From a virus: a stretch of 64,000 nucleotides of DNA. Below, piece by piece: positions 3,049 through 42,726 of the stretch; positions within the stretch are counted from its first letter, which is position 1, and each line of letters begins with the position of its first letter. The stretch is from positions 82,706-146,705 of IMG/VR virus record IMGVR_UViG_3300021197_001752. One strand, 5' to 3'. The position numbers were made by a program, and so were the translations under genes. The notes beneath the pieces are model-generated. The model worked only from the letters and a program-made list of their open reading frames with translations. It was not told the origin of the DNA and did not search any database.

Positions 3049-3181
3049 TAGTTCTTCTCCTTTTTGTTTGGCAGTCCAAAGAAAGCCGATGCAATAACAA
3101 ATGTAATTACCGTACTAAAACCAACCCAGGCTATAAATGCAAATAGTCCCATTACAATCGATTCAGTCATATAGTTCTCTC

Positions 3182-7136: not shown

Positions 7137-8189
7137 TCAGGCTCCCAAGATCTTTGCCAGGTACCCAGCGACGGAATCACCGCCAGCAAGCTCAGCAGCA
7201 TGAAACAGCTTCACTTTGGGTTGTGGCATCCGAGCGACAACTTGCCACAGCTTCATGGCAGCTTCGCTAGGAAGGGTAACGAAGTACTTAGCCAGGTTCA
7301 CAACCTGTTCTTCACTAAGGTCTTCTTCATTGAGTTTTCCAGAAGCGTCAAGCTTCTCAATCAAAGCACAGTTATCATTCAAGGAGAACCCAGCAAGGGC
7401 TTCCGAACGCTCACCGTTGAGCAACTGATCAACCGTAACCTGCCGCTCGTAGTTGGCAGCGAAGTCGTTGAAGGAAACAGCAGCTTCAAAGCCCACGAAG
7501 GACTGAGCAAGGGCGAACATCTGGGGACCTGGGGACTCCAGAAGCTCAGCTTTAGCCAGCACTTGGTTCAACCGATCCCAGCTACGACGGCTAGGGTACC
7601 GCTTGTTAGGCTCGATGTCACCATTATGCTCAAGGTGATCACGATTCTGGTTGATGAAGTCCCAAACCAGGGAGTCAACATTGTCTTTTGCCCAAGACAA
7701 CCAGTCCTCTACCGTGGGCTCAATGTCCCAAACCGACCAACGGTCAAGTTCAGCAGGGTCCATCTCATTGACTTGGTACTGCTCACCGTGCTCACCGCCA
7801 TTGATGGCAGCAAATACGATCGTATCAGCATGAAGGTAGTGCCCGTTGAGCTTTCGGCTGTCCGTCAACTCAAAGATACCCTGGCGAACTTCCAAGGTGG
7901 CACGGTCAACTTCGTCCAAGAAGAGAACAACGGGCTCTTCACAAGCCTGCTTGAACCAATCTGGGGGATTGAAGCTGGTACGGTTGCCTTCAATGCTAGG
8001 CAAGCCAACCAAGTCACCCTCGGTCATCTGGCTGGCACGACGCTCCACTACTGGAAGCTCCATGCCCTTAGCAATCTGGTAAACAACTTGGCTCTTACCC
8101 ACACCGTGGCGACCACGAAGCAGGACAGGCAGGCGAGCGGCAGATACCGCAGGCGCTAAGTTCACAAAGGTTTTGAAGTCTACACTCAT
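7137..8189 (-). CDS. MoxR-family AAA+ ATPase
   Basis: Walker A GRHGVGKS, Walker B LFLDE, sensor N, DPAELDR, PSRRSW. Confidence 0.92.
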   Translation of the reverse strand: MSVDFKTFVNLAPAVSAARLPVLLRGRHGVGKSQVVYQIAKGMELPVVERRASQMTEGDLVGLPSIEGNRTSFNPPDWFKQACEEPVVLFLDEVDRATLEVRQGIFELTDSRKLNGHYLHADTIVFAAINGGEHGEQYQVNEMDPAELDRWSVWDIEPTVEDWLSWAKDNVDSLVWDFINQNRDHLEHNGDIEPNKRYPSRRSWDRLNQVLAKAELLESPGPQMFALAQSFVGFEAAVSFNDFAANYERQVTVDQLLNGERSEALAGFSLNDNCALIEKLDASGKLNEEDLSEEQVVNLAKYFVTLPSEAAMKLWQVVARMPQPKVKLFHAAELAGGDSVAGYLAKILGA

Positions 8190-26717: not shown

Positions 26718-28301
26718 TTATTCCACTTGTTCCCGTAAAACCGAGCAGTTTGTAGTAATTAAAATACCCGCTGCTGAGGAAGCGTTTGTAACTGCTGATT
26801 TTGTTACTTTCACTGGGTCTATAACACCCACCTCGATCAAGTCCTCGAAGCGACCTGAGCGGACATTGAAACCTATCAACTCAGTGCCCTCCTCTGTAGG
26901 GATCGAGTTGATAACAACGTCACTAGAGATGCCAGCATTATCTAAGATCTGTCGTAGCGGTGAGTAGCAAGCTGTGATCAAGGTTTGATACCCAAGCAAC
27001 TCACCCCGAGTCTCAAAGTTTCTCTCTGGTAAAGCCATTGCCGCTCTGATCAGACTGATGCCGCCGCCTGGTACTACACCTTCTTCTTGGGCGCTGCGCA
27101 CAGCCTCAAGCGCATCTTCAAATCGATGCTTCTTCTCTTCGACCTCTACCTCTGTTGCACCGCCGACCTGTAGCAGAGACACCCCTGATGCAAGACGGGT
27201 GATCCTTTCCTGTATCTTACCTGCCTGATGAAGATCTTCCGTAGCCTCAACTTCGTTCTTCAAGGTCTCCACTAAAGAATCCATCTCCTCAAAGTTGGTG
27301 TTGCCGCCAACAAAGGTTGTCCTAACCTTAAGGATCTCTACACTCTTACATGTACCTAAGTGCTCTAACTTGATATCGCTTAGACGGATGCCACTGTCAC
27401 GACTGATAAATGTGCCTCCTGTTGTCGTAGCAATATCAGATAAGATAGCTCGGCGCTCCTCGCCGTATTCAGGTACCTTGATTGCAGCGATCTTCATTCC
27501 GTTACGCATACGGTTGATAATCAAGGCTGCCAGCAATTGACCAGAGATCTCTTCGGCGGCAATGATACAAGGCCTTCCATCTCTAGCGATGACCTCAAGT
27601 ACTGGTAGCATCTCCTCCAGTGAATCAAGCTCGTGATCTGTTGTCAGCACTAAAGCATTATTATATTCTACTGCATTTCTTCTGTGGTCAGTAACAAACT
27701 TAGCTGAAACATAACCTGCTGCAACTTTGAAACCCTCAATGACGTCTAGCTTGGTCTCTAACGACCTGCTCTCTTCAATCTTAACTGCTCCGTCCTTACC
27801 TGCTGCAACTACCGCTGATGCGACTAGCTTACCAATAGTGCTGTCCCCATTCGCTGAGACTGTGGCAACATGCTGGATGTCTTCCTCTGACGAAATAGGA
27901 CTAGACATAGTATCTAGCGTACTCAGGATATCCTCAGTAGCCATGTCAATGCCACGTTTCATCTCAACGCCTGAAACACCTACCGCTAATTGTTTCTGAG
28001 CTTCCTTGAGCAAGTCACGGGCAATCACGACAGTCGTAGTCGTGCCATCGCCACTAGCCTTCTCCGTTTCCATGCTAGCCTGGCGAACCACGTCAATCCC
28101 TGCCTGCTCAAAGTCATCCTCCACTTGCACTACTCGTGCGACACTGACGCCATCCTTAGTTACAATGGGTGGTGCCCCTCGTTGATACAGGATAACATTC
28201 TGTCCTGCTGGTCCGAGCGTTGAGCTAACAGCGTTTGCTAGCTTGTTCACCCCTGCCAATAATTTGTTCTGTGTCTCTGCGCCAAATAATATATTTGCCA
28301 T
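26718..28301 (-). CDS. groEL: Chaperonin GroEL
   Basis: TLGP, TKDGVSVA, GDGTTT, GVVPGGG, VIDPVKV. Confidence 0.97.
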   Translation of the reverse strand: MANILFGAETQNKLLAGVNKLANAVSSTLGPAGQNVILYQRGAPPIVTKDGVSVARVVQVEDDFEQAGIDVVRQASMETEKASGDGTTTTVVIARDLLKEAQKQLAVGVSGVEMKRGIDMATEDILSTLDTMSSPISSEEDIQHVATVSANGDSTIGKLVASAVVAAGKDGAVKIEESRSLETKLDVIEGFKVAAGYVSAKFVTDHRRNAVEYNNALVLTTDHELDSLEEMLPVLEVIARDGRPCIIAAEEISGQLLAALIINRMRNGMKIAAIKVPEYGEERRAILSDIATTTGGTFISRDSGIRLSDIKLEHLGTCKSVEILKVRTTFVGGNTNFEEMDSLVETLKNEVEATEDLHQAGKIQERITRLASGVSLLQVGGATEVEVEEKKHRFEDALEAVRSAQEEGVVPGGGISLIRAAMALPERNFETRGELLGYQTLITACYSPLRQILDNAGISSDVVINSIPTEEGTELIGFNVRSGRFEDLIEVGVIDPVKVTKSAVTNASSAAGILITTNCSVLREQVE

Positions 28302-29340: not shown

Positions 29341-31332
29341 CTATGGGATCTTAATTGTCATCTTACCTTTGTTGCCAGTAGCAAAGTAGTTCTTGCCACC
29401 GTCAACTCGGATCTCGCCATCAAACTTAGCTGGGTAGATAATATCTAATGGTCCCGACTTTATGCCTGTATCACCCTCTGCCACATAAGCTCCCCTCTTT
29501 GCGTAGATCTGTACTAAAGGTAATCTATTATACATCGCTTTAGCAAAGTTTGTAAAGATCTTTTCTCCATTTTTATCTTGCGCATTATTGACTGTCTGTT
29601 GTGCAAGTTTTGCCATGCCAGCAATAATATGGAGCGCCTCGCTATAATCAGACTTGCCTGTGTTGGGATTGAAGAGTGCCTTGAACTTATCAAGTTTGGC
29701 TTTTATATTTTTGTCTGCTACTGGTGCCATCTCTCTAGGCCATCTCTTAGCTTTTTCAGCCTTCATCAACTCTCTAATTTGGTTGTACTGATCCCCTGTC
29801 AGATTGTAGTCGCCTGCTATTTCAACATGCATCCGTATAACTAAATCCCACCAACTATATCTTTTGTCAGCCATCATATCCACAATGCCTGGGTCTTCTG
29901 TATTGCCAGTGTATAAGTTTATCCCTGAAGGGTTGCCTGGTCCATACAATTCTATTAGCTGCTGCTTCTCTTCCTGCTCTATATCCGCCAACTCTGCATA
30001 GAGTTCTGCCACGCTTGGGTTAGCACCTTTCCCAGCCTTTGAACTAACCATGATATCTTGCTTATCACCAAAGTGAACATAGCTATCTTTTAGCTTTTCG
30101 TTCTTAGACATGGGCCATGATACACCGTCGCTCTCAGTCCAGTTGTTAACGCCTCGTGGCTTGAGTAAATTCTCTAGGGCACTGTCGAGTACAGCGTCGT
30201 TACCCAAGTATGTCTTGTTGCCTGCGGCTAAGAATATTGGACCTGTGACTTCGCTTAGGTATTTGAAAATTGATGGTAAGTACTGATCTCTGTTTTCCTC
30301 TGACTCGAATTGCAGAACAGGTAAGGCTTGCCCAGCCACTGCTGCTTTGAGATAAGCAGGAAGACTTCTTGCTAAAGCGGTGTCTATCTTGCTCAACACG
30401 GACTCATCAAGTGAGCCTGGAACTGAATCAAGAGCCATCTTTTGATCACGGCTGCCGCCCAGTAAACTAGGACCTACCTCTTGAATCTCTTTGCCAGCCT
30501 GTGTGGTCTTAGAGCCGAAGCCTGTCTGTTGTCGAAATTGTGTTTGCTGCCATGGTGGTCCTGGGCTTGTCTGCCCGCTGCCATATTTTATAAAAGCGTA
30601 CACCTCTTTTCCCAGAGCCTTTCCTTTATCTGCCTTAGCAAAGAGAATCTGGACTGACTTAACTCTGGAGGGTAATTTATCCTCTTGCCCTTCGGCGCTG
30701 TTATACAGGACAAGCTTACTGAGCTTGCTGTTAGACAGGGCTGACTTCAAGTCGTTGGGGGTGGGAATTTTATTTTGCTTGGCTATAAGTTGATAAACAG
30801 CTAGAGCGAGTTGCGCTTGATTTGTTATTGTTTCGGGCTCGCCTATCTTAATAAACTGTTGCCCGACTGTCTCAATCGCTTGACCTTCCTTGTTGGTAAG
30901 CTTAAGTCCAACGGTGTCTGGGTGCATCACACCCCTGCCTTCTTGAATAATCTCGTTAATACATTGCTCTATGAGAAATTCTAGCCCCATCTCTATGGTT
31001 CTTGTTTGCGTCTCTCTCATGCTATGTTGGGTATCTTTTATCCCAGCCATCAGAGTGGGGCAAGTTTGACGTAGGTCATCTACCATATCAGGGCAGTCAC
31101 AATTATTATGACCAAACTCAACATAATCATCGATACTGTCGGCTTGCTCAGGGCTGACAAATAACCCCATAGTAAATATATAACGCTGCTTATCGTTCAT
31201 GGCGTCAAAGTCTCGATCGTAATTATATCCATTGACGTTTAGTCGCTGGTTCAATTGGTTGATCTTATTCTTGTATTCCATCGCCACGTTAGGATCTGAC
31301 GCTAGAGATTGGTAGGGATTGTGCCCTGGCAT
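29341..31332 (-). CDS. Large hypothetical protein, possibly a virion-carried nuclease-like protein
   Basis: Co-transcribed with leader-bearing gene; WP...LKDS...VSSKAGKG resembles a PD-(D/E)XK variant. Confidence 0.6.
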   Translation of the reverse strand: MPGHNPYQSLASDPNVAMEYKNKINQLNQRLNVNGYNYDRDFDAMNDKQRYIFTMGLFVSPEQADSIDDYVEFGHNNCDCPDMVDDLRQTCPTLMAGIKDTQHSMRETQTRTIEMGLEFLIEQCINEIIQEGRGVMHPDTVGLKLTNKEGQAIETVGQQFIKIGEPETITNQAQLALAVYQLIAKQNKIPTPNDLKSALSNSKLSKLVLYNSAEGQEDKLPSRVKSVQILFAKADKGKALGKEVYAFIKYGSGQTSPGPPWQQTQFRQQTGFGSKTTQAGKEIQEVGPSLLGGSRDQKMALDSVPGSLDESVLSKIDTALARSLPAYLKAAVAGQALPVLQFESEENRDQYLPSIFKYLSEVTGPIFLAAGNKTYLGNDAVLDSALENLLKPRGVNNWTESDGVSWPMSKNEKLKDSYVHFGDKQDIMVSSKAGKGANPSVAELYAELADIEQEEKQQLIELYGPGNPSGINLYTGNTEDPGIVDMMADKRYSWWDLVIRMHVEIAGDYNLTGDQYNQIRELMKAEKAKRWPREMAPVADKNIKAKLDKFKALFNPNTGKSDYSEALHIIAGMAKLAQQTVNNAQDKNGEKIFTNFAKAMYNRLPLVQIYAKRGAYVAEGDTGIKSGPLDIIYPAKFDGEIRVDGGKNYFATGNKGKMTIKIP

Positions 31333-31333
31333 G

Positions 31334-31618
31334 TTATTCTCCGCTTAAGGCTGCTAATATTTCCTGTCGGATCATAGCTTCAAGTTCCAAACTTTCGTTC
31401 TTCTCTTCTTCTTCCTCATCGGCGTCACCGCCTTCTTTATCAATGATAGCTTTCTGAAGACCGTCGGGTAACTCGTCTTGATCACCCTTGAGTTTAGGAT
31501 TATCGTCATACTTCTTAGTTGATTTTTCTTCTAAGCCCTGGCTCTCTTCATCGAGCTTCTGCTGCTCCTCTTTGATGATTTCCTTAAGCCTAGCCTTAGT
31601 AATTTGAAATGTGTTCAT
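31334..31618 (-). CDS. Acidic protein with ITKARLKEIIKEE leader
   Basis: Leader motif; C-terminal MIRQEI repeat. Confidence 0.75.
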   Translation of the reverse strand: MNTFQITKARLKEIIKEEQQKLDEESQGLEEKSTKKYDDNPKLKGDQDELPDGLQKAIIDKEGGDADEEEEEKNESLELEAMIRQEILAALSGE

Positions 31619-31640
31619 GGTAAAAAAGTACTCCTCAATG

Positions 31641-31651
31641 TATAAATAGTT
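31641..31651 (-). promoter_or_regulatory. Late-type motif AACTATTTATA
   Basis: Recurs upstream of leader-bearing genes. Confidence 0.6.
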
Positions 31652-31653
31652 TT

Positions 31654-32367
31654 CTAACTGGCAAAATCCCGCTCTTCAAACAGAGTATAGGTAAATGAAT
31701 TACCAAATGCTTTAGCCGAGTTGTTGCAAATCTCAATAAATGTATTATAATCATCCACCTTTTGGAACACCTGGCAGCCAGCCGACCACCTCTCAACTAA
31801 GTAAGATTGTGTCCTAGGGTTGCTCCTATGAATGTTGATTCCGAATAGGCCTTCTTGTGTTTCTTCGCAGCCATAATCCAAGATGTCATCCTTGTTGTTA
31901 TCTCGCCAAACACGAACTGGCTTTCTCTGGCATAGAGCTTCGTATTTACCCTGGTGCTTAGCTAGCTTCCAAGTCGAACGATATTGACCTGGGATGAGAA
32001 TAGCTGTGCCCTTTGGGCTCAATGGGTTTTCTAACCAGTGCTTGCCTGGGTCTGTAGTCGCACTCCAGACATGGTGTCTCCACTCTCCATTCTCTCGGTA
32101 GACGGCACAGATGTAGTCATCGAAACGATTACTCTCTGGGTTGTCTACTCTGACTCCAAAGATATTGACATTATAATCTTTATTGCCGTCAAAAAACATA
32201 TAGCCTTTTTTCTCGTAAGCAGCAACGACCGCATCTTTGTCAGCAATAATTTCTTCTAAGTTCATCACTTCTATCTCCTGCTTATTCTGGGACATCCCAG
32301 AAAGACTGGTCGAGGATTCTGTCGGCAATACCATACTCAATAGCTTGTTTAGCATTAATATAAACAT
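31654..32367 (-). CDS. L,D-transpeptidase-like (YkuD) peptidoglycan enzyme, putative endolysin (likely start MNLEEII)
   Basis: TTDPG, PGQY, GINIH...WSAGCQV catalytic His/Cys. Confidence 0.65.
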   Translation of the reverse strand: MFILMLNKLLSMVLPTESSTSLSGMSQNKQEIEVMNLEEIIADKDAVVAAYEKKGYMFFDGNKDYNVNIFGVRVDNPESNRFDDYICAVYRENGEWRHHVWSATTDPGKHWLENPLSPKGTAILIPGQYRSTWKLAKHQGKYEALCQRKPVRVWRDNNKDDILDYGCEETQEGLFGINIHRSNPRTQSYLVERWSAGCQVFQKVDDYNTFIEICNNSAKAFGNSFTYTLFEERDFAS

Positions 32368-33034
32368 TTGTTTTCCGCTCCATCATCTTCTTGATCATTC
32401 TCTTATTCATGTTGGTGACACTAGCTAAAGCCTCTACGTATTGATCTTGTAACCACTTTGTTTCTTCATACTCAGTTTCAAGCTCGTGCATAGCACCATG
32501 GTGACCTGCTCGTAGAGAATGGATCATCACTCTGGTATTCTTGCCAATGAACCTACAGCCTTCCGCACCTGATGCTAACAGTAGAACACCTGCTGACATA
32601 ACCTTGCCGAGCCCTACTGTTTCGATAGGCGTTGATGATCTCATCGATAACATCAAATCATGGATACCAAACATGTCGGCAGCGTTACCGCCAAAGGTTG
32701 AAATATAAAACTGCATTGGCTTGACTGCCATGTACTGTTTTGTTTTTTCTGTATTTATTAGAACAAGACTATTGTTGTAGTTGTGATAAATCAATGCTGA
32801 GATAATAGCAGATGCTGACTCCTCATCAAGATTACCACAAAAGTTAATTGCTCGTGGAGTACGTTTCTCGGTGGGCACCTCAACCAAGGTTGGCACCACT
32901 TCTCTTATCTCGTCTTCGGTCATGTCTTCAATAGAGACAACCTCTAAAGCAATGTCAAGGTCAGCTTCGGTTTCTGGTACCAGAACCTCGACCTCTTCTT
33001 TGCTACTCTTCCTCTTCGTCTTCTTCGTTGGCAT
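32282..33034 (-). CDS. clpP: ClpP-like protease
   Basis: ISTFGG, VMSAG (Ser), MIH (His), A.EYGIAD. Confidence 0.88.
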   Translation of the reverse strand: MPTKKTKRKSSKEEVEVLVPETEADLDIALEVVSIEDMTEDEIREVVPTLVEVPTEKRTPRAINFCGNLDEESASAIISALIYHNYNNSLVLINTEKTKQYMAVKPMQFYISTFGGNAADMFGIHDLMLSMRSSTPIETVGLGKVMSAGVLLLASGAEGCRFIGKNTRVMIHSLRAGHHGAMHELETEYEETKWLQDQYVEALASVTNMNKRMIKKMMERKTNVYINAKQAIEYGIADRILDQSFWDVPE

Positions 33035-33386
33035 AAGTATTTCTTCCTTCTTCGGGTAATAGGTCTTTCATAAGATCGCTTTGCCTAAATTGGCTAGCGT
33101 ACTTACTGTATATAGATTGCTCCTGGCGTGTAAAGTATACCTTATCTTCACCAGTTTGTTCATCAAATTCAAATCTAAATTCAAGTTGATCATCTCGATA
33201 CTCGATCAATGCTTGAATATATTGGGTTAGATCCCCTACTTGCATAGCACCTTTCTCAATCTGGTCATATGCAAAGTTGAGTACTCTGCTGGCAACAAAA
33301 AGCTTTTCAGCAGAGACTACCTTATCATCGTCACTAACTTTAGTAAACTTTAGCAGCGTTAGAATATCTTTTACTCTCGCTCTCAT
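33003..33386 (-). CDS. Hypothetical protein
   Basis: ORF. Confidence 0.6.
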   Translation of the reverse strand: MRARVKDILTLLKFTKVSDDDKVVSAEKLFVASRVLNFAYDQIEKGAMQVGDLTQYIQALIEYRDDQLEFRFEFDEQTGEDKVYFTRQEQSIYSKYASQFRQSDLMKDLLPEEGRNTYANEEDEEEE

Positions 33387-33410
33387 AACTTCCTAATTCT
33401 TTAGGGCTAA

Positions 33411-33451
33411 ATAAAAAAAGATGTAGACCAAGTTGCCCTGGCCTACATCTT
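33411..33451 (-). terminator. Intrinsic terminator
   Basis: AAGATGTAG/CTACATCTT stem + U-tract. Confidence 0.7.
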
Positions 33452-33482
33452 ACTTTATAAATGACAAAGTGTAAAGCTTTCT

Positions 33483-34067
33483 TTACTTCTTGTTAAGGAT
33501 GCGCTCAAGAACTCTCTTGAGTACGGCTTCTGTTAAAGCCTCTTCATCTACAACCTCTACGACGGTATCGTCTTTGCGGTTATAGTGATCGCCCATGCCA
33601 TGATCCATTGCTGGATCTGCCATTGCTGGGTCTTCGTGTGCCATGGCAGCATCCCCTTCATCACCAGCTTCCATTTCTGGCATTGGTGACTCTTCCCCTT
33701 CATCATCTTCCTCAGTCTCAACACCGAATGGCTCAAGAGCTTTTAAGATAGCTTGGACAACATCCATGCCGTCGGCATCGGATGCTCCGTCCTCTTCCAT
33801 CTCGACTTCCATATCACCTTCTTCCTCGCCCTCTTCGTGAGCCTCTTCTTCGATGGCGTTTTCCCCAGTAGCGGCTTCCAATTCGGTTACCGTTTCTGTT
33901 TCGGTCTCATCTTCATCAGTTTCGTCTGTCTTGGAGTTCTCCGTGACAGTCTCCTCTGTTACTTCTTCTTCTTCTGTGAAGAATGTTTCGCTGATGACGC
34001 TAACGTCAGCTAACTTAGCCCATCTGCGGATGGTCTGTTCATTTAGTAGTTTATCTTGCTTTGTCAT
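33483..34067 (-). CDS. Highly acidic prohead core/scaffold-like protein
   Basis: LLNE..IRRWAKLA N-terminus, many [LIV]xE sites, basic C-terminal helix. Confidence 0.6.
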   Translation of the reverse strand: MTKQDKLLNEQTIRRWAKLADVSVISETFFTEEEEVTEETVTENSKTDETDEDETETETVTELEAATGENAIEEEAHEEGEEEGDMEVEMEEDGASDADGMDVVQAILKALEPFGVETEEDDEGEESPMPEMEAGDEGDAAMAHEDPAMADPAMDHGMGDHYNRKDDTVVEVVDEEALTEAVLKRVLERILNKK

Positions 34068-34124
34068 TTATTCAACTCCTTAAAAATCAGATATACTTAG
34101 ATGACGTCATTCGTCAACTGTTAG

Positions 34125-34133
34125 TAAATAGTT
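34125..34133 (-). promoter_or_regulatory. Late-type motif AACTATTTA
   Basis: Recurrent motif upstream of scaffold-like gene. Confidence 0.55.
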
Positions 34134-34145
34134 GTGTAAAAAGTA

Positions 34146-34412
34146 TTATTCCTCCATGAAATCAAAAAGTCCTCTTTTACCTGCTTTTTCCATCGCTTTA
34201 TCTTGAATTTGTTTGACTCTAGGGAAGCTAATCTGCAATCGATCTGCCACATCTCGCAAGCTAAGACCACCTGGATTTTTATTCGCACAAACGACAGAGC
34301 AGTTGCTATCACCCTCATAATCAATCCAGTGCCTACACTCTTGCTTATCACAAGATTTACTGAGCCTGTCAAAGAAGTCAAAGCAAATGCTACCGTTTTC
34401 TAATTTATACAA
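34146..34412 (-). CDS. Stand-alone sigma70 region-4 HTH protein with N-terminal Cys cluster
   Basis: LSLRDVADRLQISFPRVKQIQDKAMEK. Confidence 0.75.
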   Translation of the reverse strand: MYKLENGSICFDFFDRLSKSCDKQECRHWIDYEGDSNCSVVCANKNPGGLSLRDVADRLQISFPRVKQIQDKAMEKAGKRGLFDFMEE

Positions 34413-34413
34413 T

Positions 34414-35460
34414 TTATTTTCTCCGACCGTTTTGTGCAGTCATGATATGTGTTCCACTTTCCATTAGTCCAGCAGAAGTTTGACGGGCCCATTCTACTTT
34501 GTGTTGCAACTCGGCAACAGTGCGTGCACCAGAGTAAGATAAGCCACTCCTGATGCCACCGTCAAGATCCTTAAGAATGTCAACAGCACTACCCTTGAAT
34601 GGGATATAAGAAGCAACACCCTCTGGCGTGGATGATTTGCTGCGCCAGTCCATCTGGGCATCCTTAGAAGCCATGCCACGGTATTCCTTCACTCGACTAT
34701 TATCAGGCAGAGTAATAATATCCCCTGGACTTTCCGTGGTGCCCGCTAACATAGAGCCACACATCACAAAGTCAGCGCCTGCGGCTAAAGCCTTGACCAT
34801 ATCGCCAGAGTTCTTGAGTCCACCGTCAGCGATGATGGCAACGTCTCTATCAGTTCTAGCACAATCAAAAATAGTTTGTAGTCCTGGGAGTCCATGACCA
34901 GTCACTAACCGAGTGCTACAGATGGAGCCGCCGCCAATGTTGCAGCGAACTGCATTAGCGCCCCAGTCGGCTAAGTCGTTGATGCCCTCAAGCGTGCAGA
35001 CATTGCCTGCTATGATATAAACATGATTTCCATATTCTTCCCGCAGAGTCGTAAGAGCATTCTTCATCAGGGAGTGGTGACCGTGGGCTACGTCTACACA
35101 AAGGATATCTACCCCAGAAGCGATTAGAGCTTCTGAGCGTTCTAGGTAATCTCCCGTCACACCAATCGCAGCAGCGAGTTTCTTCTCGACCCATTCAATA
35201 GAGTTGGCTGCTTCGATCGCCATCTTCTGCTGCTCTGCAATAGAGTTATAACGATGGAGCACAGCTAAGCCACCAGCCTTACTCATGGTAACCGCCATCT
35301 GTGCTTCAGACACTGTGTCCATTGGCGATGCTATGATAGGCAGAGTGAACTCCCTGTGTCCTAGGTAGCTCGTTGCATCCACCTCGCTTCTGCTTTCGAT
35401 GTCGCTATATTGCGGCACGATTAGCATGTCGTCATAAGTGACAGCTTCTTTAAACTTCAC
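34414..35460 (-). CDS. IMP dehydrogenase / GMP reductase family (no CBS domains)
   Basis: [34 protein letters not shown]. Confidence 0.93.
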
Positions 35461-35728
35461 CTTCTTCTCCTACTAGTTGATTAACTTTATCTTGGCATTC
35501 TGGGCAGAACAAGCGAACCATTTCGTTCTTAGCTCTAACCACGACTTTCCAACTCATGTGTGCCTCCCTTGTCTTAGGAAATTCTATACTACAAGTAGAA
35601 CATGTTTTGGGTAGTTTGTCAAACAAATTAATTTGTTTTTGCATACGTTGCTGGGCTTCGTCTGACGCCTGCTTTTGTTTTTTGGTTTTAGCCTTACGCT
35701 TAAGGCGCTTCTTCTGCTTCTTGTCCAT
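35450..35728 (-). CDS. Basic zinc-finger protein
   Basis: CSTC...CPEC. Confidence 0.65.
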   Translation of the reverse strand: MDKKQKKRLKRKAKTKKQKQASDEAQQRMQKQINLFDKLPKTCSTCSIEFPKTREAHMSWKVVVRAKNEMVRLFCPECQDKVNQLVGEEGEV

Positions 35729-35782
35729 TGCATCCCCTTCTCTATAAGGATACCATACCTACACTATTTGTAAAGGATTTAT

Positions 35783-36700
35783 TTATTCTTCTTCTGAAGA
35801 TTCTTCTGAAGGTGCATCACCTGAAGTGTCCTTAGCAGCAAGCTGTACGTTCATCCAAGATTGACCCAATGGGTTTTCAACTGGGGCTTCGGCGAATCTC
35901 TGCACTGATCTTGTCGATTCCTTGGTTGGTGGTACTGGCTCGTTGTTGACAACGATTGTAAAGTTATTGGCACCAAATAACTCTTGATAGTTTTCTTTAT
36001 TGTCCTGAACTTGTTGCCACATCTTCTCTACTTCTTCAGGGTCTAGCTTTCTTTCTCTCTTGGCATTTTGTTTTAGTGCACGTTCAAGCGAGGTGTCCAC
36101 AAAGATCATGTAGGTGTCGTAGCCAAGATCAATTAGGCGTTGGCGCTTTTTCACCATCTTGCTATAATCTTTACCAGTGCCGTCAATCAGCATCCCCAGG
36201 CGACCTGCGGCATAATAGCCCTGAAGCTTTGCTAACTTACCTTTAGCGACGGCTCGGGTAGAATCGCTTCGGTCGCCCAATAGGCCGATCTGGGCTGCAA
36301 GTTCTGCTGCATCCTGACCTTTATACTCGCCTGCTTCTTTAGCAAGCTGAGAGATGGCACCCAAGTCAGCAAGTGGGATACCCATCTTCTTTAGCCCGAT
36401 CTCGAATAGGTTATCACTGTTAACATATTTAAGCCCATAGCGACCCACGAAAGAAGAAGCGTCGAAGGTCTTAGCCTGACCAGCTTCTCGGGCATCAAAC
36501 ATTACATCAGCCACATAAGACTTGCCACTGCCTGGTCCGCCCGCCGTAAATACAGCTTTGAGAATGCCCTTATCGTAGACACCCTCATCCAGTAGTTCTT
36601 CGTTGACTACCCCAGGATGATCAAGTAAATAACTTTGACGCTCCTGTAGCATCTCGCCCTGTGCTTCTTTGATTAGTTGCTTAAGTTGTTTGATATCCAT
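35783..36700 (-). CDS. P-loop kinase (zeta-toxin/AAA_33-like) with IKQLKQLIKE leader
   Basis: GGPGSGKS, VNSD, IDGTG, lid-like KQNAKRER. Confidence 0.8.
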   Translation of the reverse strand: MDIKQLKQLIKEAQGEMLQERQSYLLDHPGVVNEELLDEGVYDKGILKAVFTAGGPGSGKSYVADVMFDAREAGQAKTFDASSFVGRYGLKYVNSDNLFEIGLKKMGIPLADLGAISQLAKEAGEYKGQDAAELAAQIGLLGDRSDSTRAVAKGKLAKLQGYYAAGRLGMLIDGTGKDYSKMVKKRQRLIDLGYDTYMIFVDTSLERALKQNAKRERKLDPEEVEKMWQQVQDNKENYQELFGANNFTIVVNNEPVPPTKESTRSVQRFAEAPVENPLGQSWMNVQLAAKDTSGDAPSEESSEEE

Positions 36701-36705
36701 GCTAC

Positions 36706-37632
36706 TTATTTACTTCCCATTTCTAACAAGACATTCCTAAATTCTTCTTGAATGATTTTGTTTAGAGCACTGTTTGTCATTTTGATATGACGTTGCTTGC
36801 TTTCGCCAAATGGTAGCTCGCCCTGACCTTCTGGCTCGGCTGCCAAACCTTTGGTCTGACTCTTATAAAGGCTGCCGCCTTGCGCCAATAGATTCAACAC
36901 ACCCTTTACGCTGCCGATGTTTCCATGACCACCTCTTAGTTTCTTGAGGGCATCATATTTCTCGTCTTCGAGCTTATCATCACCAAAGGGGAACTGTACA
37001 CTAAGGTTGAATGCGGTTTTAGATGTGTCGCCTCGGTTTGGAATAGCCTTGAGTTCTATCTCAATATGCTCTGGGTAGAATATATCATACCTCAAAACAC
37101 CTGTGGTGATTGACTCTATGTGAGCAATTGGCTTGTTCTTCATATCTGGAATAATATTTGCCAGCACTTTAGCTAAGTGATCTTCATACTCTACAGCAGC
37201 TTTGACCAATGCATCATAAAGGTCGTTGTCTCTACCACGATCTAGCAAGCCAGCGTGGATGGCCTTGTTCGTCGCCGCCAGGTTCATCTCGCCTTGGGTT
37301 TCTTCTGCTAGCTCTTGTCTAATAATATTTTGTAGTTGTTGTTTTGTGATTTTCATTTTATTCTCCCTTTCATCTAGACCGCCATACATTGTGACTATCT
37401 GTACCGCAGCCTTGTTTACGAGGTCAAAAGGTATCTTATCAAATCTACTCTGGAGATTTTTGATAGTGTATTGTATCTTTTCTTCTTTGTTGTTGCCTTT
37501 GGTAAACTTCTTAATTTTGTCAACACCACCAAATTGCTTAATATAAACGTCAACCATTTTCTGCACGTCCGCTTCGTCGGTGCTGAGCGCCTCTCTAATC
37601 ATTTGACGTATTTGATCTTTGGTAATCTTCAT
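36706..37632 (-). CDS. Protein with three copies of the MKITK..II.EE leader
   Basis: Copies at aa 1, aa 93 (own RBS at ~37362-37367) and the C-terminus. Confidence 0.8.
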   Translation of the reverse strand: MKITKDQIRQMIREALSTDEADVQKMVDVYIKQFGGVDKIKKFTKGNNKEEKIQYTIKNLQSRFDKIPFDLVNKAAVQIVTMYGGLDERENKMKITKQQLQNIIRQELAEETQGEMNLAATNKAIHAGLLDRGRDNDLYDALVKAAVEYEDHLAKVLANIIPDMKNKPIAHIESITTGVLRYDIFYPEHIEIELKAIPNRGDTSKTAFNLSVQFPFGDDKLEDEKYDALKKLRGGHGNIGSVKGVLNLLAQGGSLYKSQTKGLAAEPEGQGELPFGESKQRHIKMTNSALNKIIQEEFRNVLLEMGSK

Positions 37633-37636
37633 TTTG

Positions 37637-37810
37637 CTATCCTTCGCTATCTACCAGTCTGTCTAGGATAGCTTGCAGTCTTTCATATTGGGACTTATGT
37701 GCCTGCACGGCTTTCTTAAGCTCTGCTATAACATCATTCATCGTGTCTTTGTCACTATCTGAGATTTCTTCCCTAATAATCTTTCTTAGCTCGCCTTTGC
37801 TAATCTTCAT
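37637..37810 (-). CDS. 57-aa leader-family protein (not in ORF track): MKISKGELRKIIREEISDSDKDTMNDVIAELKKAVQAHKSQYERLQAILDRLVDSEG
   Basis: Hand translation; TAATG coupling with upstream gene. Confidence 0.85.
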   Translation of the reverse strand: MKISKGELRKIIREEISDSDKDTMNDVIAELKKAVQAHKSQYERLQAILDRLVDSEG

Positions 37811-38058
37811 TAGTTCTTGCCGTCTTCATTTGCTATTGCTTGCATTATCATACGCAGTGAATCGGCGTCCTCCTGAAGCGGGTGATAATCGCCTTCTTGG
37901 TTTTCAATATACTCCGTAAGAGCATTATAGCCGTCTTCCAGAAGATCAAGGGCTCTGGCGAGAGGACCGCCGTAGGAGTCATAAGGGGCATCACCCTCAA
38001 ACTCTTTGAGTAACTCTTCTTTAATAATCTTTTGTAGTTCTTGTTTGGTGATTTTCAT
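37810..38058 (-). CDS. Leader-family protein
   Basis: MKITKQELQKIIKEELLKE. Confidence 0.85.
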   Translation of the reverse strand: MKITKQELQKIIKEELLKEFEGDAPYDSYGGPLARALDLLEDGYNALTEYIENQEGDYHPLQEDADSLRMIMQAIANEDGKN

Positions 38059-38246
38059 TTTCTATCTGCTCCCCTGGATAAGGTGTTTAGAGCATTATAA
38101 ATTTCTTTCATCCGAGAATCCTCAAAACTAAGTTCGTTACTTGTGTCATCCACAATGTCTTGTAAAGCGCCCTGTGCGCTGGCTAGCACCTGTGAAGTAT
38201 ACGCTTCTTTGATTATGCTTCGTAGCTCTTCTTTAGTGATTTTCAT
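38055..38246 (-). CDS. Leader-family protein
   Basis: MKITKEELRSIIKEA. Confidence 0.85.
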   Translation of the reverse strand: MKITKEELRSIIKEAYTSQVLASAQGALQDIVDDTSNELSFEDSRMKEIYNALNTLSRGADRK

Positions 38247-38249
38247 TTC

Positions 38250-38621
38250 TTAGCCCCAGTCGTCTTCGTCTGGTAGACGGCGACCTGACTCTTTGGTTAG
38301 CATCTGAGCGGCTTCCACAGCTATTTGCTCGTCTGCGCCTTGGTCCTCTAGTTCCTTCTTGAACTCCATAAACACACCAGTGGTTGCTTTAAAACGTTCA
38401 TCGCTCAGCATCGCCTTTTGACCGTCGCTGAGAGTCTTGCCTAGAGCCACAGCCCTAAGGACATAAGTGTATTGGTATGTCTCTTTGTCAGTCATTTCTT
38501 CCTTATCCAAGCCAAGCTCCTTGAGGATTGCTTTGACAACCTCGTCTCGACGCTCAAGCTGGTTACCTTTATATGTGACTTCTGTAATATACTTGCGCCA
38601 CTCTGATAATAATTCTTTCAT
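38250..38621 (-). CDS. Protein with second-type leader MKELLSEWRKYITE
   Basis: Start at 38621 gives TGATG coupling. Confidence 0.75.
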   Translation of the reverse strand: MKELLSEWRKYITEVTYKGNQLERRDEVVKAILKELGLDKEEMTDKETYQYTYVLRAVALGKTLSDGQKAMLSDERFKATTGVFMEFKKELEDQGADEQIAVEAAQMLTKESGRRLPDEDDWG

Positions 38622-38722
38622 CAACATGCCCCTTCGCAGCTAGCGCAAGCGCAACAGCCGCAGCAGCAGCAACAGTGGCTGCTATTGAATAGATTAACTA
38701 ATTTGTGTAATAGGTTTTTCAT
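38621..38722 (-). CDS. 33-aa Cys-rich micropeptide MKNLLHKLVNLFNSSHCCCCCGCCACASCEGAC (not in ORF track)
   Basis: Hand translation; ATGA overlap upstream and TGATG overlap downstream. Confidence 0.75.
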   Translation of the reverse strand: MKNLLHKLVNLFNSSHCCCCCGCCACASCEGAC

Positions 38723-38988
38723 GAGTCCATCTCCAAGGCTAACATGATCTCGTCCATTGCCTTAGAGATGCTCCTAGCAGCATCATCAAGATAACTCTGC
38801 GCATCTTGGATTGGAACACTGCCACCCATCTTATCAACAAGGTCGTTTGAAAGTGAACCGATCTTTTGACGCATCTCCATTAAAGCTGCAACATGTGGCT
38901 GGTCTGCGTGAGGGTTTTTACCAAGGTCAGCGTAGCGCCCGACCTCTTCTTTGATAATCTGCCTTAGCTTTGCTTTGGTGATCTTCAT
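38719..38988 (-). CDS. Leader-family protein
   Basis: MKITKAKLRQIIKEEV. Confidence 0.85.
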   Translation of the reverse strand: MKITKAKLRQIIKEEVGRYADLGKNPHADQPHVAALMEMRQKIGSLSNDLVDKMGGSVPIQDAQSYLDDAARSISKAMDEIMLALEMDS

Positions 38989-38989
38989 T

Positions 38990-39229
38990 CTAGACGTCCA
39001 TCTTGCTCATATCGATATCGCCAGCAGGCTCACCGCTTGGCTTCGTTCCGCCATGGCGATTCTGCATAGCCAGAAGATCATCCATAATCTCTGGTGTTCC
39101 GCCCATCTCTTGGGCTACTCGCATAAGCTCTTGGAACAGCACTTCCATTTGTGTGCTGTACTCTTCGTTGAGTTCTTTAGCAACTTCTTCTTTAATGATT
39201 TCTTTGAGTTGTTCTTTAGTAATCTTCAT
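38990..39229 (-). CDS. Leader-family protein
   Basis: MKITKEQLKEIIKEEVAKELNEE. Confidence 0.85.
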   Translation of the reverse strand: MKITKEQLKEIIKEEVAKELNEEYSTQMEVLFQELMRVAQEMGGTPEIMDDLLAMQNRHGGTKPSGEPAGDIDMSKMDV

Positions 39230-39272
39230 TTAGTAAATCCCCTTTGGGCACCATGTGGGTGCGGTAATACAA

Positions 39273-39283
39273 TATAAATAGTT
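39273..39283 (-). promoter_or_regulatory. Late-type motif AACTATTTATA heading the leader-family operon
   Basis: Identical to the 31641 copy. Confidence 0.6.
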
Positions 39284-39291
39284 GCTATATG

Positions 39292-42200
39292 TTATAAAAG
39301 CCTAAGATTATGCTTGATACTATAGGTACTAAATCCCCATCGTGGTTCGTGCTTGAGCTTGCCAACGTAAATACGATTAGTTTTAATGATGTCCGTGTCT
39401 TTCACACCCCAGCATTTGATCTGCTCATCCGCCCCGTTGTGATCGGTGACTGACACAATATAATATTTCTTACCGTGCTTTGTCTTCTTGACTTTAATCT
39501 CTCTTGGGATGAACCAACAAAGAATCAATTCTGGATCATACTCGGAAATCGGTGGGCAGCCTTTGTTCATAAGAGACTCCCGTGTAAAGTCATCCATGAT
39601 AAGGTCAATAGGATAGATACCTGTTAGAGTCGTTAGATGCTCTATCTTTTCTTCCTTTGTGAAGCTACCTTCATCTTTATATGTTTCGATATTTTCATTT
39701 AGGTTCTTCTCCTTGCGTGGACGATCGACAGCCACAGAAGACCAAAAGTGCTTCATGCCTGTGAAGCGATCATCCATCAACTCATTGAGCGCCTGGCTGC
39801 GCACTAGGACGTCCAACGCCTTCTTGTTGAGCTTGGAGTACGTAATGTCTTCATTGAAAATAAACTCTTCAATCTTGTTGAAGGGTCGATTATCTAGGAT
39901 CTGCTGAATGGCTGTTGAGCCCAAGCCCTTGATCGCAGTCAATGGTTGGATCAAGTTCTTGCCGTCGGCGTCAATCTCCCAAACCATCCCTGACTTGTTG
40001 ATGCTAGCAGGAACAATATTGAACCCAAACTTCTTAGCTGTGTTGATTGCTGCCATCTTGCGCTTTTCTGGTTCTTTATCTAAGAACGCTGCGATCCACT
40101 CGGTCGGATAGTAATGTGCCAACCAAGCGCACTGGAACGACACTGCCCCATACGAAACTGCGTGTGACAGGTTGAAGCCATAGCCTGAGAAGAATACCAT
40201 CTTTGCCCAAAGGTCTTTAGCAACCTGCTCCGATAGTCCCTTATCATTACAACCTTTGAGGAACTTAGCATAGATCTTCTCTCTTACACTGTCCTTGCCC
40301 GTACCACGCTTAGTAAGAACTTTGCGGAGGAGGTTCCCTTCGTCTAGTGTGATGTTGTCTCCCAGCTTGTGAGCCAGCATAGCCAACTGCTCTTGGAACA
40401 CTAACAGTCCGTATGTATCCCCTAGCACTTCTTCAATAAGCGGGTGCTTATATACTACCTGATCTGGATTACTCTTGTTGGCGATATACATCTGATCTGC
40501 TTTTGCCGACAAAGGTCCTGGTCTAAAGATCGCCGTGATGGCTGCAAAGTCCATAAGTGACTCTGGCTTGGCTTCTTGACAGAAGGCCTGTGCAGGTCCA
40601 CTAGTCATTTGAAAGACGCCTGCCCACTTGCCCTTATGGAAGATGTTCTCCCAGACTGCCTGGTCATCAAAGTCAATCACATTAGGATGAAGTTGCTCGT
40701 CGTAGAAGGCACGTACCTGCTCAAACGTTGGATCTTCAATACCGTGGTGGCGCTTCAAGACGTGGCGAATTGCTCCCGAGATCATGCGGAGAGTTGATAG
40801 CCCAAGCAAGTCAAACTTAATAAACCCTAGCGGTTCCAAGTGTCGAACGTTCTGACCCTCGCTCCATGGAGTCTGCATCACGCCACCTGAGTTGATCAAT
40901 GGCATATGCTTATCTAGATTCTCTGCCACTACGATACCGCCTGCGTGCCTACTAACACTGCGGACATTACCAAACAGGTTATCAACATGTGTAGCAATAT
41001 GCGGATACTTATCAAAGAACTCCTGAAGCGTTTCGCTATATTCTTTTACCTCATCAAACGTTGGAACATAAACGCCCGCTGTTTGTCCGTGCGCTGCCTT
41101 AGCCTTGGGGGTAGCCTCGCTCATCATGACGCCCGTAACTTTATTCACCTCTGCAAAGGGGACGCCATAGAACTTGCCAATGTCCTTGATAAGTGAGCGC
41201 AACTGTAGTGTATTGAAGTTGCTAATTGGTACGACGTTGACGCCGAGCTTGCCCCACTCTTCTGCTAGCTGCTCCTTGAGTTGCATTGGCTCCTCAACAT
41301 CGAAATCAATATCGGGATAGCCTTTGCCGCCCTTGGTCAAGAACCTCTCGAACTGAAGGCTGTACTTGATCGGATCAACCTGGGTAATGTCTAGGACGTA
41401 GGATAGCAACGATCCTGCTGCCGAGCCTCGCCCGAGACCAACAAGCATCTCCTCTTGTGCCCTATCGCTAATAGCCTTCATAGTCAAAAAGTATTGGGCG
41501 AAGCCACGGTCCTTGATGACAGACAACTCATACTTGAGCCGCTCGACATACTCTGGATCTTTTAGGTCTTTCTCCTTTAGTCCCTTCAAAGCCTGCCTTG
41601 TTAGTGTTTCCATCGCTGTCGTGCCCTCTGGAACAACAAAGTCTGGCAACCGCACCTGACTATCTGGAAGGAAGTCTTCAATCCGATCGTATGCAATATG
41701 ATGTGTGCGCTCGATGCTGGCACGGACAAAGCTGTCATCATACTCAATCTTAGATCGCCCTGCATATTTCTCATATGCCTCCCACATCTGATCACCGTTG
41801 CGAGGATACAACTCGTAGCCGATCTCCTCTACCGATTCTGGTAGTCGATGGGCGTCCTGATCTTCATAAGGAGCTTTACCTCCCCACCCAATGCGGCGAT
41901 ACATCTCACGGTCCTTCCACAACTCTGGTCGTGGGTAGTGACTGTCGGATGTACTGATAACCTCTGCGCCCATCTCTGTGCAAGCTTGGATGATTAGATC
42001 GTTGACAATGTGCTGCTCGGAAATATCGTTCCACTGGATCTCCCCATAGAACCTATCACCAAAGATGTCTTGAAACTCACCGATCGTCTGGCGCATCGAT
42101 GCTAAAACCATATCTGCGTCGTACTCGTGTGTGACTGGATCACGGTGTTTCCAAAAGTCCCCAAAGAGCGGTCCCGACATGCAAGCACTGCTGACGATCA

Positions 42201-42726
42201 ACCCCTCATTATGCTTGTCCAACATCTCAAAGTCAATGCGGGGGTAACGGTAAAAATTCTCGGGACGGTAACTGTCCGATACAAGCTTGAATAGATTATT
42301 CAAACCGACTTGGTTCTGCGCTAGGATGACCAAGTGCCTGCGGATGTTGAGGGGGTTGAACTTCTTTTGCCTGTTCTCATCCTCGACAACCATAGCAAAC
42401 TCTTCTTTCTTCTGGCGCTTGCTGTTGGCTTTATGTTCTTCGTACTGCTGCCGCCACTTCTTATGCGACTTAATAAAGTAAGCCTCGCAACCGTAGATGG
42501 CTTTGAACTCCTTACCTTCCTCACGCATCTTCTTAAGATGCTCAACCTGAAATGATAGCCCGTTCATATGACCATGGTCTGTGAGCGAGTGGGCGTTCAT
42601 CCCATTCTCAAAGGCGAAGTCCATATGTTCGCCTGGCATACCTAAGCCATCAAACGGGGAAAGTCCTGAGTGGGCGTGGAGTCCCACAAAAGGAATCTTG
42701 CTCTCGATTCGTTTTGTCATGTGCAA
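39292..42726 (-). CDS. dnaE: DNA polymerase III alpha subunit
   Basis: PHP motifs HAHS/TDHG/DSHY, GRGSAAGS, PDIDFD, KFDLLGL, YGFNLSH. Confidence 0.97.
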   Translation of the reverse strand: MHMTKRIESKIPFVGLHAHSGLSPFDGLGMPGEHMDFAFENGMNAHSLTDHGHMNGLSFQVEHLKKMREEGKEFKAIYGCEAYFIKSHKKWRQQYEEHKANSKRQKKEEFAMVVEDENRQKKFNPLNIRRHLVILAQNQVGLNNLFKLVSDSYRPENFYRYPRIDFEMLDKHNEGLIVSSACMSGPLFGDFWKHRDPVTHEYDADMVLASMRQTIGEFQDIFGDRFYGEIQWNDISEQHIVNDLIIQACTEMGAEVISTSDSHYPRPELWKDREMYRRIGWGGKAPYEDQDAHRLPESVEEIGYELYPRNGDQMWEAYEKYAGRSKIEYDDSFVRASIERTHHIAYDRIEDFLPDSQVRLPDFVVPEGTTAMETLTRQALKGLKEKDLKDPEYVERLKYELSVIKDRGFAQYFLTMKAISDRAQEEMLVGLGRGSAAGSLLSYVLDITQVDPIKYSLQFERFLTKGGKGYPDIDFDVEEPMQLKEQLAEEWGKLGVNVVPISNFNTLQLRSLIKDIGKFYGVPFAEVNKVTGVMMSEATPKAKAAHGQTAGVYVPTFDEVKEYSETLQEFFDKYPHIATHVDNLFGNVRSVSRHAGGIVVAENLDKHMPLINSGGVMQTPWSEGQNVRHLEPLGFIKFDLLGLSTLRMISGAIRHVLKRHHGIEDPTFEQVRAFYDEQLHPNVIDFDDQAVWENIFHKGKWAGVFQMTSGPAQAFCQEAKPESLMDFAAITAIFRPGPLSAKADQMYIANKSNPDQVVYKHPLIEEVLGDTYGLLVFQEQLAMLAHKLGDNITLDEGNLLRKVLTKRGTGKDSVREKIYAKFLKGCNDKGLSEQVAKDLWAKMVFFSGYGFNLSHAVSYGAVSFQCAWLAHYYPTEWIAAFLDKEPEKRKMAAINTAKKFGFNIVPASINKSGMVWEIDADGKNLIQPLTAIKGLGSTAIQQILDNRPFNKIEEFIFNEDITYSKLNKKALDVLVRSQALNELMDDRFTGMKHFWSSVAVDRPRKEKNLNENIETYKDEGSFTKEEKIEHLTTLTGIYPIDLIMDDFTRESLMNKGCPPISEYDPELILCWFIPREIKVKKTKHGKKYYIVSVTDHNGADEQIKCWGVKDTDIIKTNRIYVGKLKHEPRWGFSTYSIKHNLRLL

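Follow-up and report, generated by a model that had tools for sequence, protein, structure and literature searches.

A short N-terminal leader on dissimilar phage proteins as a candidate capsid-targeting propeptide

Introduction

The internal proteins of phage T4 carry N-terminal targeting peptides of 10-19 residues, which attach to the scaffolding core before being removed (PMC9026906, PMC3012670), and the T4 protease gp21 cleaves after L/I-x-E; Asp in place of this Glu prevents processing and leaves targeting intact (PMC9026906). Such a capsid-targeting sequence (CTS) is present on IPI, IPII and IPIII, and Alt has a propeptide that is likewise cleaved by gp21 (Mullaney and Black 1996, reviewed in PMC9026906 and PMC3012670). 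A packaging experiment with a leader fused to green fluorescent protein has been done for the T4 CTS, and a review suggests that the CTS is perhaps a general means for T4-like phages to load varied proteins (PMC9026906). Here we analyse a stretch of 64,000 nucleotides of viral DNA (positions 82,706 to 146,705 of the IMG/VR record IMGVR_UViG_3300021197_001752), hereafter called the window, in which one short leader with the consensus MK[IT][TS]KxxLxxII[KR]E[EA] heads eight minus-strand open reading frames (ORFs) between positions 31334 and 39229. An original prediction had proposed that this leader is a modular address tag that loads diverse proteins into the prohead, is cut off after a glutamate and allows new cargo to be recruited by recombination. 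Based on the data below, the leaders are probably propeptides of a T4-type capsid-targeting system whose sequence is new.

Two further described systems are close to this one. Polyvalent proteins are predicted to be packaged and injected, and their domain types include ADP-ribosyltransferases (ARTs), peptidases and ParB-like domains (Iyer et al. 2017, PMC5512222). In the phiKZ-like and SPN3US giant phages, propeptides of inner-body or ejection proteins are cleaved by diverged gp21 homologues (PMC9026906, PMC5694885). A literature search on MKITK and on the CTS in marine phages returned no description of the present leader.

Results

A leader peptide common to unrelated proteins

The record that contains the window is 146.7 kb long (G000) and is a fragment of a genome, estimated to be 81% complete. 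Directly downstream of a DnaE-type polymerase gene (39292-42726), its minus strand holds a run of nine packed or overlapping ORFs (39229-35783), separated by gaps of -4 to +5 nt, in agreement with the tight packing first described. Six of the nine (starting at 39229, 38988, 38246, 38058, 37810 and 37632) begin with the full leader, which we call class 1. A profile hidden Markov model (HMM) was built from the leaders, as had been recommended, and run against the six-frame translation of the whole record. The copies were found on the minus strand at the coordinates originally given for them and scored 18-36 bits, the strong ones (28-36 bits, E 1e-7 to 1e-9) being those at the six starts above and an internal copy at 37356. 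At E<0.01 the record contains 13 class-1 matches, all of them on the coding strand and nearly all at residue 1 of an ORF. The leader is thus a short peptide, within the 10-19 residues of a targeting peptide, that stands at the N-terminus of unrelated proteins.

The initial count of about ten copies has to be adjusted. Eight class-1 carriers stand; the N-terminus of the ORF at 34067, put forward as a variant leader, matches neither leader HMM at E<=1, and the ORF at 38621 belongs to another class (see below). The protein starting at 37632 was said to hold two additional internal copies, one of which (37356, 28.3 bits against 31.8 bits for its N-terminal leader) is strong, the other (near residue 290, 2.5 bits) marginal. 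The copy at 36700 is present but weak and degenerate (9.2 bits). That of the ORF at 31618 is real, with the leader starting at 31603 behind five extra residues (18 bits). Five further class-1 carriers are found at 2-11 kb of the same record, and the two leader classes together account for about 20 carriers in this 81%-complete genome.

The codons used at the conserved leader positions vary between copies (K, AAA/AAG; I, ATT/ATC/ATA; T, ACT/ACC/ACA; L, CTA/CTC/CTT; R/K, AGG/AGA/CGA/AAA), and comparison of the copies revealed no conservation in the DNA upstream of the class-1 starts. This synonymous variation and the unconserved upstream DNA indicate that it is the leader peptide, and not its DNA, that is under selection. 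For the 79-aa protein at the head of the array, which has 63 orthologues in marine metagenomes (49-99% identity), an AlphaFold 2 model based on 35 orthologues places a leader helix at residues 5-22, at a confidence below that of the body hairpin (residues 26-58). This is compatible with, though no proof of, a separate and removable element.

A second leader class and its cargo

The ORF at 38621 had been taken for a variant of the class-1 leader. It is instead a member of a separate, well-defined class 2 (consensus MK.LLTEWRK[YF][LI]xE), which also heads six more ORFs (E<=1e-4), plus one weaker, at 5.6-9.6 kb of the same genome. One class-2 ORF of this genome (7299-7832) encodes an ART-PolyVal protein, whose domain begins at residue 19, directly behind the leader.

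The bodies behind the leaders are dissimilar, as had been claimed, and are not paralogues of one another: no BLASTP match better than E 0.08 was obtained among 16 leader-stripped modules, no homology runs across the bodies as in a single paralogous family, and the Pfam domains found are mutually unrelated. IMG/VR was scanned for class 1 with an exact degenerate DNA pattern, for which a hand estimate assuming uniform base composition gives a chance expectation of <1 match. Class-1 loci occur in at least 119 stretches and class-2 loci in at least 108. Among the matches listed, 178 class-1 ORFs fall into 155 BLAST clusters by their bodies and 111 class-2 ORFs into 48, mostly of unknown function, the distinct complete class-1 ORFs spanning 29-375 aa. 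Pfam domains were detected in two of the 80 longest class-1 ORFs (FliG_C and EF-hand). Representatives of the 48 class-2 clusters include ART-PolyVal (3), SAM lyase (2), GNAT, C39 and C70 peptidases, 2H phosphoesterase, RNase T and ParB_N. For the small bodies of the window itself, neither Pfam nor PHROG yielded a match above threshold. The cargo in the IMG/VR loci also includes an AvrRpt2-like peptidase, which, like the FliG C-terminal, EF-hand, SAM lyase and 2H phosphoesterase bodies, is a candidate host-takeover or anti-defence enzyme. Within the one genome, the array bodies are acidic (pI 4-5) and those of the 2-11 kb cluster strongly basic (pI 10-11).

Both leaders end in a prohead protease motif

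The class-1 leaders end in II[KR]E, which fits the gp21 cut motif. As the class-1 search pattern had forced this ending, class 2, whose search pattern stopped at [YF], before the putative cut site, served as the unbiased test. The motif [LIVM]xE lies within residues 11-17 of 108 of the 111 class-2 ORFs, compared with 7.1% of equal windows in their bodies. Two unrelated leaders thus appear to converge on the same [LIVM]xE ending, and the expected L/I-x-E terminus holds for both. In T4, IPII and IPIII, as read from the T4 record, both start MKTYQEFIAE, followed by Ala.

Neither a capsid gene nor a gp21-type protease gene (Peptidase_S77) was found in the window's 81% fragment. The window's record is colinear with G001, a relative of 174.6 kb (95% complete), at 82-89% nucleotide identity (80-90% in round figures). 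G001 runs 28 kb past the window's end, where the head module absent from the fragment is situated. This extension encodes a terminase, a portal, a Peptidase_S77 protease corresponding to T4 gp21 (L007:13928-14524, 95.6 bits), an acidic protein that resembles a scaffold, and a Gp23 capsid protein (213 bits). Among the matches listed, S77 is present in 16 and Gp23 in 15 of the 18 large leader-bearing IMG/VR contigs, and in all four of the contigs that are at least 90% complete both are found. The T4-type head module with its gp21-type protease is therefore present in G001 and in most leader-bearing contigs, not in the window's own fragment. Among cultured phages, Flavobacterium phage immuto (45% identity), RM378 and Mel-JY01 have the nearest capsid proteins, which assigns the lineage to a distant branch of the T4-type phages.

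The same cut motif recurs in the head proteins of this lineage. When nine related capsid proteins were aligned with T4 gp23 by MAFFT, all nine showed a conserved L-[KR]-E at the column of Glu65 (FLTE/AE), and L-[KR]-E is present in all 18 capsid proteins listed. Glu65 is presumably the end of the 65-residue propeptide of gp23. The longest propeptide in the range given by a review has 65 residues (PMC9026906). The scaffold proteins of the lineage carry L-[KR]-E-A near residue 17.

Leaders are also found within the head block itself. Strong leader ORFs are located just upstream of gp21 in L144 (3822-4079, 85 aa), in the head block of L149 (128 aa and 339 aa, one of them at 2612-2998) and behind the capsid gene in L145 (10946-11254, 102 aa). 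In addition, a conserved protein of about 130 aa with a leader-like start, MKKSxLKxxIKxxVKEC, is encoded in every one of the 16 head modules analysed, those of G001 and of 15 relatives; its gene follows gp21 directly in most of them and comes one or two genes later in some. The T4 scaffold protein gp22 similarly starts MLKEQLIAEA, close to the CTS. A predicted complex of the G001 scaffold with the 89-aa array protein (15-row alignment, no controls) scored 0.00, which speaks neither for nor against binding.

Related arrays break and fuse at leader copies

Comparison of the arrays of G000 and G001 reveals two indels, both of which break at leader copies. In the first, the alignment to G001 breaks off at 38206, where a leader ends, and is taken up again at 37811, where the next leader starts. 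The second concerns module A of the 308-aa protein, which G001 lacks: module B by itself forms a 216-aa ORF there that begins at the leader, and this leader aligns to both flanking leader copies of G000, an alignment that reads as the footprint of recombination between repeats. The proposal that recombination takes place at the conserved leader start thus agrees with both indels.

A third relative, L003, displays three fusions, and at their junctions every module has retained its leader. The body of the 57-aa protein follows a different leader-bearing module, to which it is joined at the KEE of the leader, and the kinase is fused behind a 170-aa leader-bearing module, so that its own leader is internal. 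Module A has a different tail in L003. If the modules are cut apart by the protease, fusions that retain a cut site at their junctions would be neutral.

In the viral-fraction metagenome X5, the summed contig depth reaches 2 to 8 times that of the flanks at 37248-37531, 37816-38099 and 38952-39235. Each of these three bins contains leader copies, and in the contigs of other genomes there are breaks or jumps between leader positions, from which it follows that leader DNA is common in that virome. In the viral-fraction study P2, 97% of the sampled 31-letter words of the array stretch are present.

Distribution beyond the record

With up to 3 mismatches allowed, the leader pattern has no match in eight cultured phages, namely T4, four marine Kyanoviridae and three far-T4 phages (T4, HTVC008M, Syn9, P-SSM2, S-PM2, immuto, RM378 and Mel-JY01). 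Five leader variants are present in a 484-kb uncultured phage with a T4-like capsid protein. Megablast and tblastn searches against GenBank phages with the region, the 308-aa and 89-aa proteins and a 22-residue consensus returned nothing, the short low-complexity queries having perhaps been filtered.

An upstream motif shared with structural genes

The motif ACTATTTAY precedes the array, the gene of the 94-aa leader protein, and scaffold, adaptor-like, tail sheath and baseplate hub genes; in the window it occurs at 39281, ahead of the array, at 31649, ahead of the 94-aa gene, and also at 34131 and 26702. G001 has 13 coding-strand copies of ACTATTTA, of which 11 fall in the zone 10-80 nt ahead of a start; that zone makes up 8.6% of positions, and the other strand has 2 copies. 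The motif is conserved upstream of the scaffold genes in at least eight diverged relatives. What had been called a late-type motif is thus a real, strand-specific upstream element common to the leader array and structural genes, and a putative late promoter. The T4 late promoter, TATAAATA, was rejected as a candidate, being not enriched upstream of coding-strand genes; its plus-strand matches at 39273 and 31641 are explained by the complement of TATTTATA inside the real motif.

Another motif, GGTATTATAAATTGTAAGGGAGA, combines a -10-like box with a fixed ribosome-binding site and stands 23-25 nt before a separate set of mostly small genes in G001 (L007-L015; for example at 3081, 66570, 77674, 84205, 91780 and 92570). 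It probably marks another promoter class. Metatranscriptome contigs from two libraries that possibly hold DNA (X20 and X21) are short and identical to parts of the region, and as such are evidence neither of transcription nor of start sites or timing; one of them reaches 39278, inside the putative promoter motif, and so lends no support to a start downstream of it.

Features of the region and its neighbours

The features between 31334 and 39282 are collected in Table 1.

Table 1 Leader array, upstream motifs and adjacent features, in window coordinates
Feature	Position	Strand	Remarks
ACTATTTAT, putative late promoter element	39274..39282	-	52 nt upstream of first array gene
79-aa class-1 protein, acidic two-helix body	38990..39229	-	33.5 bits
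89-aa class-1 protein	38719..38988	-	35.7 bits; 93% identical in G001; missing from L003 array
33-aa Cys-rich ORF without leader	38621..38722	-	overlaps both neighbours
123-aa class-2 protein, starts MKELLSEWRKYITE	38250..38621	-	29.9 bits; 67% identical in G001
63-aa class-1 protein	38055..38246	-	29.7 bits; gene missing from G001
82-aa class-1 protein	37810..38058	-	30.2 bits; body just 46% identical in G001
57-aa class-1 protein (MKISK...)	37637..37810	-	32.6 bits
308-aa two-module protein	36706..37632	-	leader + module A (residues 1-92), internal leader 37356 + module B
305-aa P-loop kinase (AAA_33 / Zeta_toxin-like), degenerate leader MDIKQLKQLIKEA	35783..36700	-	9.2 bits
Second motif copy, ACTATTTAC	34124..34132	-	64 nt upstream of 194-aa acidic ORF
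194-aa protein, 37% D+E, no leader match	33483..34067	-	putatively late-motif driven, monocistronic
Intrinsic terminator-like hairpin, 15-bp stem + T run	33418..33451	-	directly downstream of 194-aa gene
Third copy of ACTATTTAT	31642..31650	-	31 nt upstream of 94-aa ORF
94-aa class-1 protein, prefix MNTFQ-ITKARLKEIIKEE	31334..31618	-	leader from 31603, 18 bits; very acidic body

Several of these features deserve comment. The 33-aa Cys-rich ORF has ten Cys within its last 17 residues; it shows 87% nucleotide conservation in L003 and L133, in which it precedes the first leader gene instead of standing third. The motif, the 194-aa gene and the terminator (33418-34132, minus strand) form a stand-alone unit, and the 194-aa protein may be an abundant acidic head-core or DNA-mimic protein. 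The 94-aa leader protein is 97% identical in G001, and a gene for a 663-aa protein of no known family (29341-31332, minus strand) starts at its stop codon. A protein atlas was of no help with module B of the 308-aa protein or with this 663-aa neighbour, which resembles virus-only unnamed clusters alone.

Other peculiarities belong to the relatives. A homologue of ribosomal protein S21 (Pfam, 32 bits) is encoded in the G001 head module (L007:14893-15186) between the prohead protease and scaffold genes, a position it keeps in most relatives. The jumbo relatives G004 (L137) and G010 (L143), of 242 and 293 kb, each have two adjacent full-length gp23-type capsid genes. Finally, about 17 tandem small ORFs (53-88 aa) with a common GDLV-containing N-terminal motif are found in G001 and are absent from the window's record (L007:2644-6243); they represent a separate paralogous array, upstream of the terminase genes.

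Discussion

Based on the above data, we consider the capsid-address reading of the leaders to be probable. Every prediction of the original proposal that could be tested in silico held, and the assignments at 34067 and 38621 are corrected here. Overall, the proposal is supported in part. The mechanism would operate as follows. Late in infection, the array would be transcribed from the ACTATTTAY promoter alongside the head and tail genes. The N-terminal amphipathic helix (MKITKxxLxxII in class 1, MK.LLTEWRK[YF] in class 2) would dock each protein on the prohead scaffolding core, and the gp21-type prohead protease would cut after the closing [LIVM]-x-E of each leader. This cut would free the mature body inside the head, from which it would probably be ejected into the host with the DNA. 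Recombination between leader copies could fuse, split, insert or delete modules without loss of function because each module has its own leader and cut site, and it is this recombination that we propose as the explanation for the rapid turnover of the array. A wider proposal, for which we see the chances as evenly balanced, is that an abundant, uncultured marine T4-type lineage, from about 150 kb to jumbo size, runs a generalised cargo-addressing system with two interchangeable, removable leaders that load hundreds of cargo families into the capsid to be delivered along with the DNA, and in which multi-leader fusions are cut and new cargo is captured by recombination.

Several points weigh against this interpretation. 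No cultured leader carrier was found among the nine phages checked, and [LIVM]xE is a short motif. The window's array adjoins DnaE, a kinase and GMP reductase, with no head genes beside it. Its leader bodies are acidic (pI 4-5), whereas the internal proteins of T4 are basic. The assignment of ACTATTTAY as a late promoter is drawn solely from the genes behind it. Moreover, the lineage also carries a ClpP-family protease (13 of 16 records), so that co-occurrence with gp21 fails to single out gp21 as the enzyme concerned.

Among the alternatives, the one that fares best accepts that the leader proteins are targeted to the prohead and cleaved, and sees in them expendable accessories of the core or scaffold, comparable to T4 gp67, gp68 and gp22, that are degraded and expelled before DNA packaging and are not delivered as effectors. 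Many bodies are tiny (41-75 aa past the leader), helical and acidic, in which they resemble T4 gp67 with its acidic tail, and would suit such a role, as would the leader ORFs beside the protease gene, which is the position of genes 67 and 68 in T4, and the leader-like N-terminus of the conserved head-module protein. Core parts should, however, be conserved, whereas the bodies form 155 + 48 unrelated clusters among the matches listed and turn over between close relatives. Enzymatic cargo (ART, SAM lyase, peptidases, phosphoesterase, kinase) would also make no sense as scaffold, and the cluster at 2-11 kb is basic (pI 10-11), like the DNA-associated internal proteins of T4. We regard this explanation as unlikely.

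Alternatively, the leader could be a docking or degradation tag, recognised by a ClpP-like protease with a host unfoldase for timed removal, or by the phage's GroEL-type chaperonin, with the capsid uninvolved. The late-motif region does contain a ClpP-family (S14) protease gene (32282-33034, minus strand), and such a gene is found in 13 of 16 related records, including all five that are at least 90% complete; co-occurrence with ClpP thus failed as a discriminator, ClpP being lineage-wide too. A GroEL gene is situated at 26718-28301 of the window, and N-terminal ClpX recognition signals beginning Met-basic-hydrophobic have been described. A degron would nevertheless leave unexplained the invariant Glu and the [LIVM]xE ending shared by two unrelated leaders, the well-kept internal leaders at module junctions, and the leader ORFs among portal, protease and scaffold genes, which makes this explanation quite improbable in our view.

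The leader might also be no address at all, its helix being part of the fold in one family of small helical paralogues that evolve fast. The tandem arrangement of small ORFs would suit such a family, some members of G000 and G001 match over the whole protein at 31-46% identity with the leader included in the span, and the one modelled member is all-helical. Yet the bodies extend from 41 to 360 aa and have unrelated folds (P-loop kinase, FliG_C and EF-hand in class 1; ART, GNAT, papain-like peptidases and 2H phosphoesterase in class 2), there is no body-to-body BLASTP match within the genome, and the leader helix of the 79-aa protein is modelled at lower confidence than its body; a common paralogous origin is thus very unlikely. 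Least of all can we credit conservation at the nucleic-acid level, with the peptide as a by-product of an A-rich 5' coding box for initiation or of a cassette recombination site: the translationally coupled genes with AAR-rich first codons, the indel breakpoints within leader DNA and the raised X5 depth at the three leader-containing bins would fit it, but synonymous codons vary at the conserved residues, conservation reaches 15 codons in and is strongest at the hydrophobic positions and the Glu, and recombination at leaders is a consequence of the repeats that gives no reason for the peptide pattern.

If the capsid-address reading is correct, a profile of 15 residues would list candidate injected host-takeover and anti-defence proteins across marine viromes. 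Proteins that are packed in the head and injected are hard to recognise from sequence. In T4, they include IPI*, which inhibits a restriction system, and Alt, which re-tunes the host RNA polymerase. In scale, the present system comprises some 20 carriers per genome and, across viromes, hundreds of body families. The leaders would in addition serve as another address tag, independent of that of T4, with which foreign proteins could be loaded into T4-type capsids, and a removable tag would make gene fusion, fission and cassette exchange nearly cost-free.

Compared with the T4 CTS, the present leaders are likewise short N-terminal peptides on otherwise unrelated proteins of a T4-type phage, start with MK and end in a hydrophobic pair followed by x-Glu, fitting L/I-x-E, and the genes for the bodies differ from one relative to another in both systems. 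In either case the tag is similar to the start of a head-core protein (gp22 in T4, here the conserved protein after gp21). The ADP-ribosyltransferase among the carriers (7299-7832) parallels T4 Alt, a packaged and injected ADP-ribosyltransferase that is processed by gp21. Beyond the outline MK...[hydrophobic]-I-x-E, however, there is no sequence homology to MKTYQEFIAE, the leader pattern having no T4 match with <=3 mismatches. The leader has 14-15 residues as opposed to 10 in T4, two distinct classes coexist in one genome, and about 20 carriers in an 81%-complete genome contrast with four in T4. Tandem arrays and multi-module fusions with internal leaders are further differences, as is the acidic nature of the window's cargo.

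The class-2 ART-PolyVal, papain-like peptidases and ParB_N are among the domain types described for polyvalent proteins (PMC5512222). Those proteins differ in uniting many domains in a single giant chain, to which MuF or portal domains are often joined, whereas here each domain is a small protein or part of a two-module fusion with its own, putatively removable, address. We presume that the GNAT and phosphoesterase cargo may fit the polyvalent set too. With the phiKZ-like phages and SPN3US the lineage would share the processing of many head-internal proteins after Glu by a gp21-related protease; the cut motif differs there, and the propeptides of those phages are long and are not known to share a single consensus tag. 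The proposed mechanism is thus the one already known from the T4 CTS, and what is new is a tag without homology to that of T4, the presence of two classes per genome, the scale, and the architecture of arrays and fusions.

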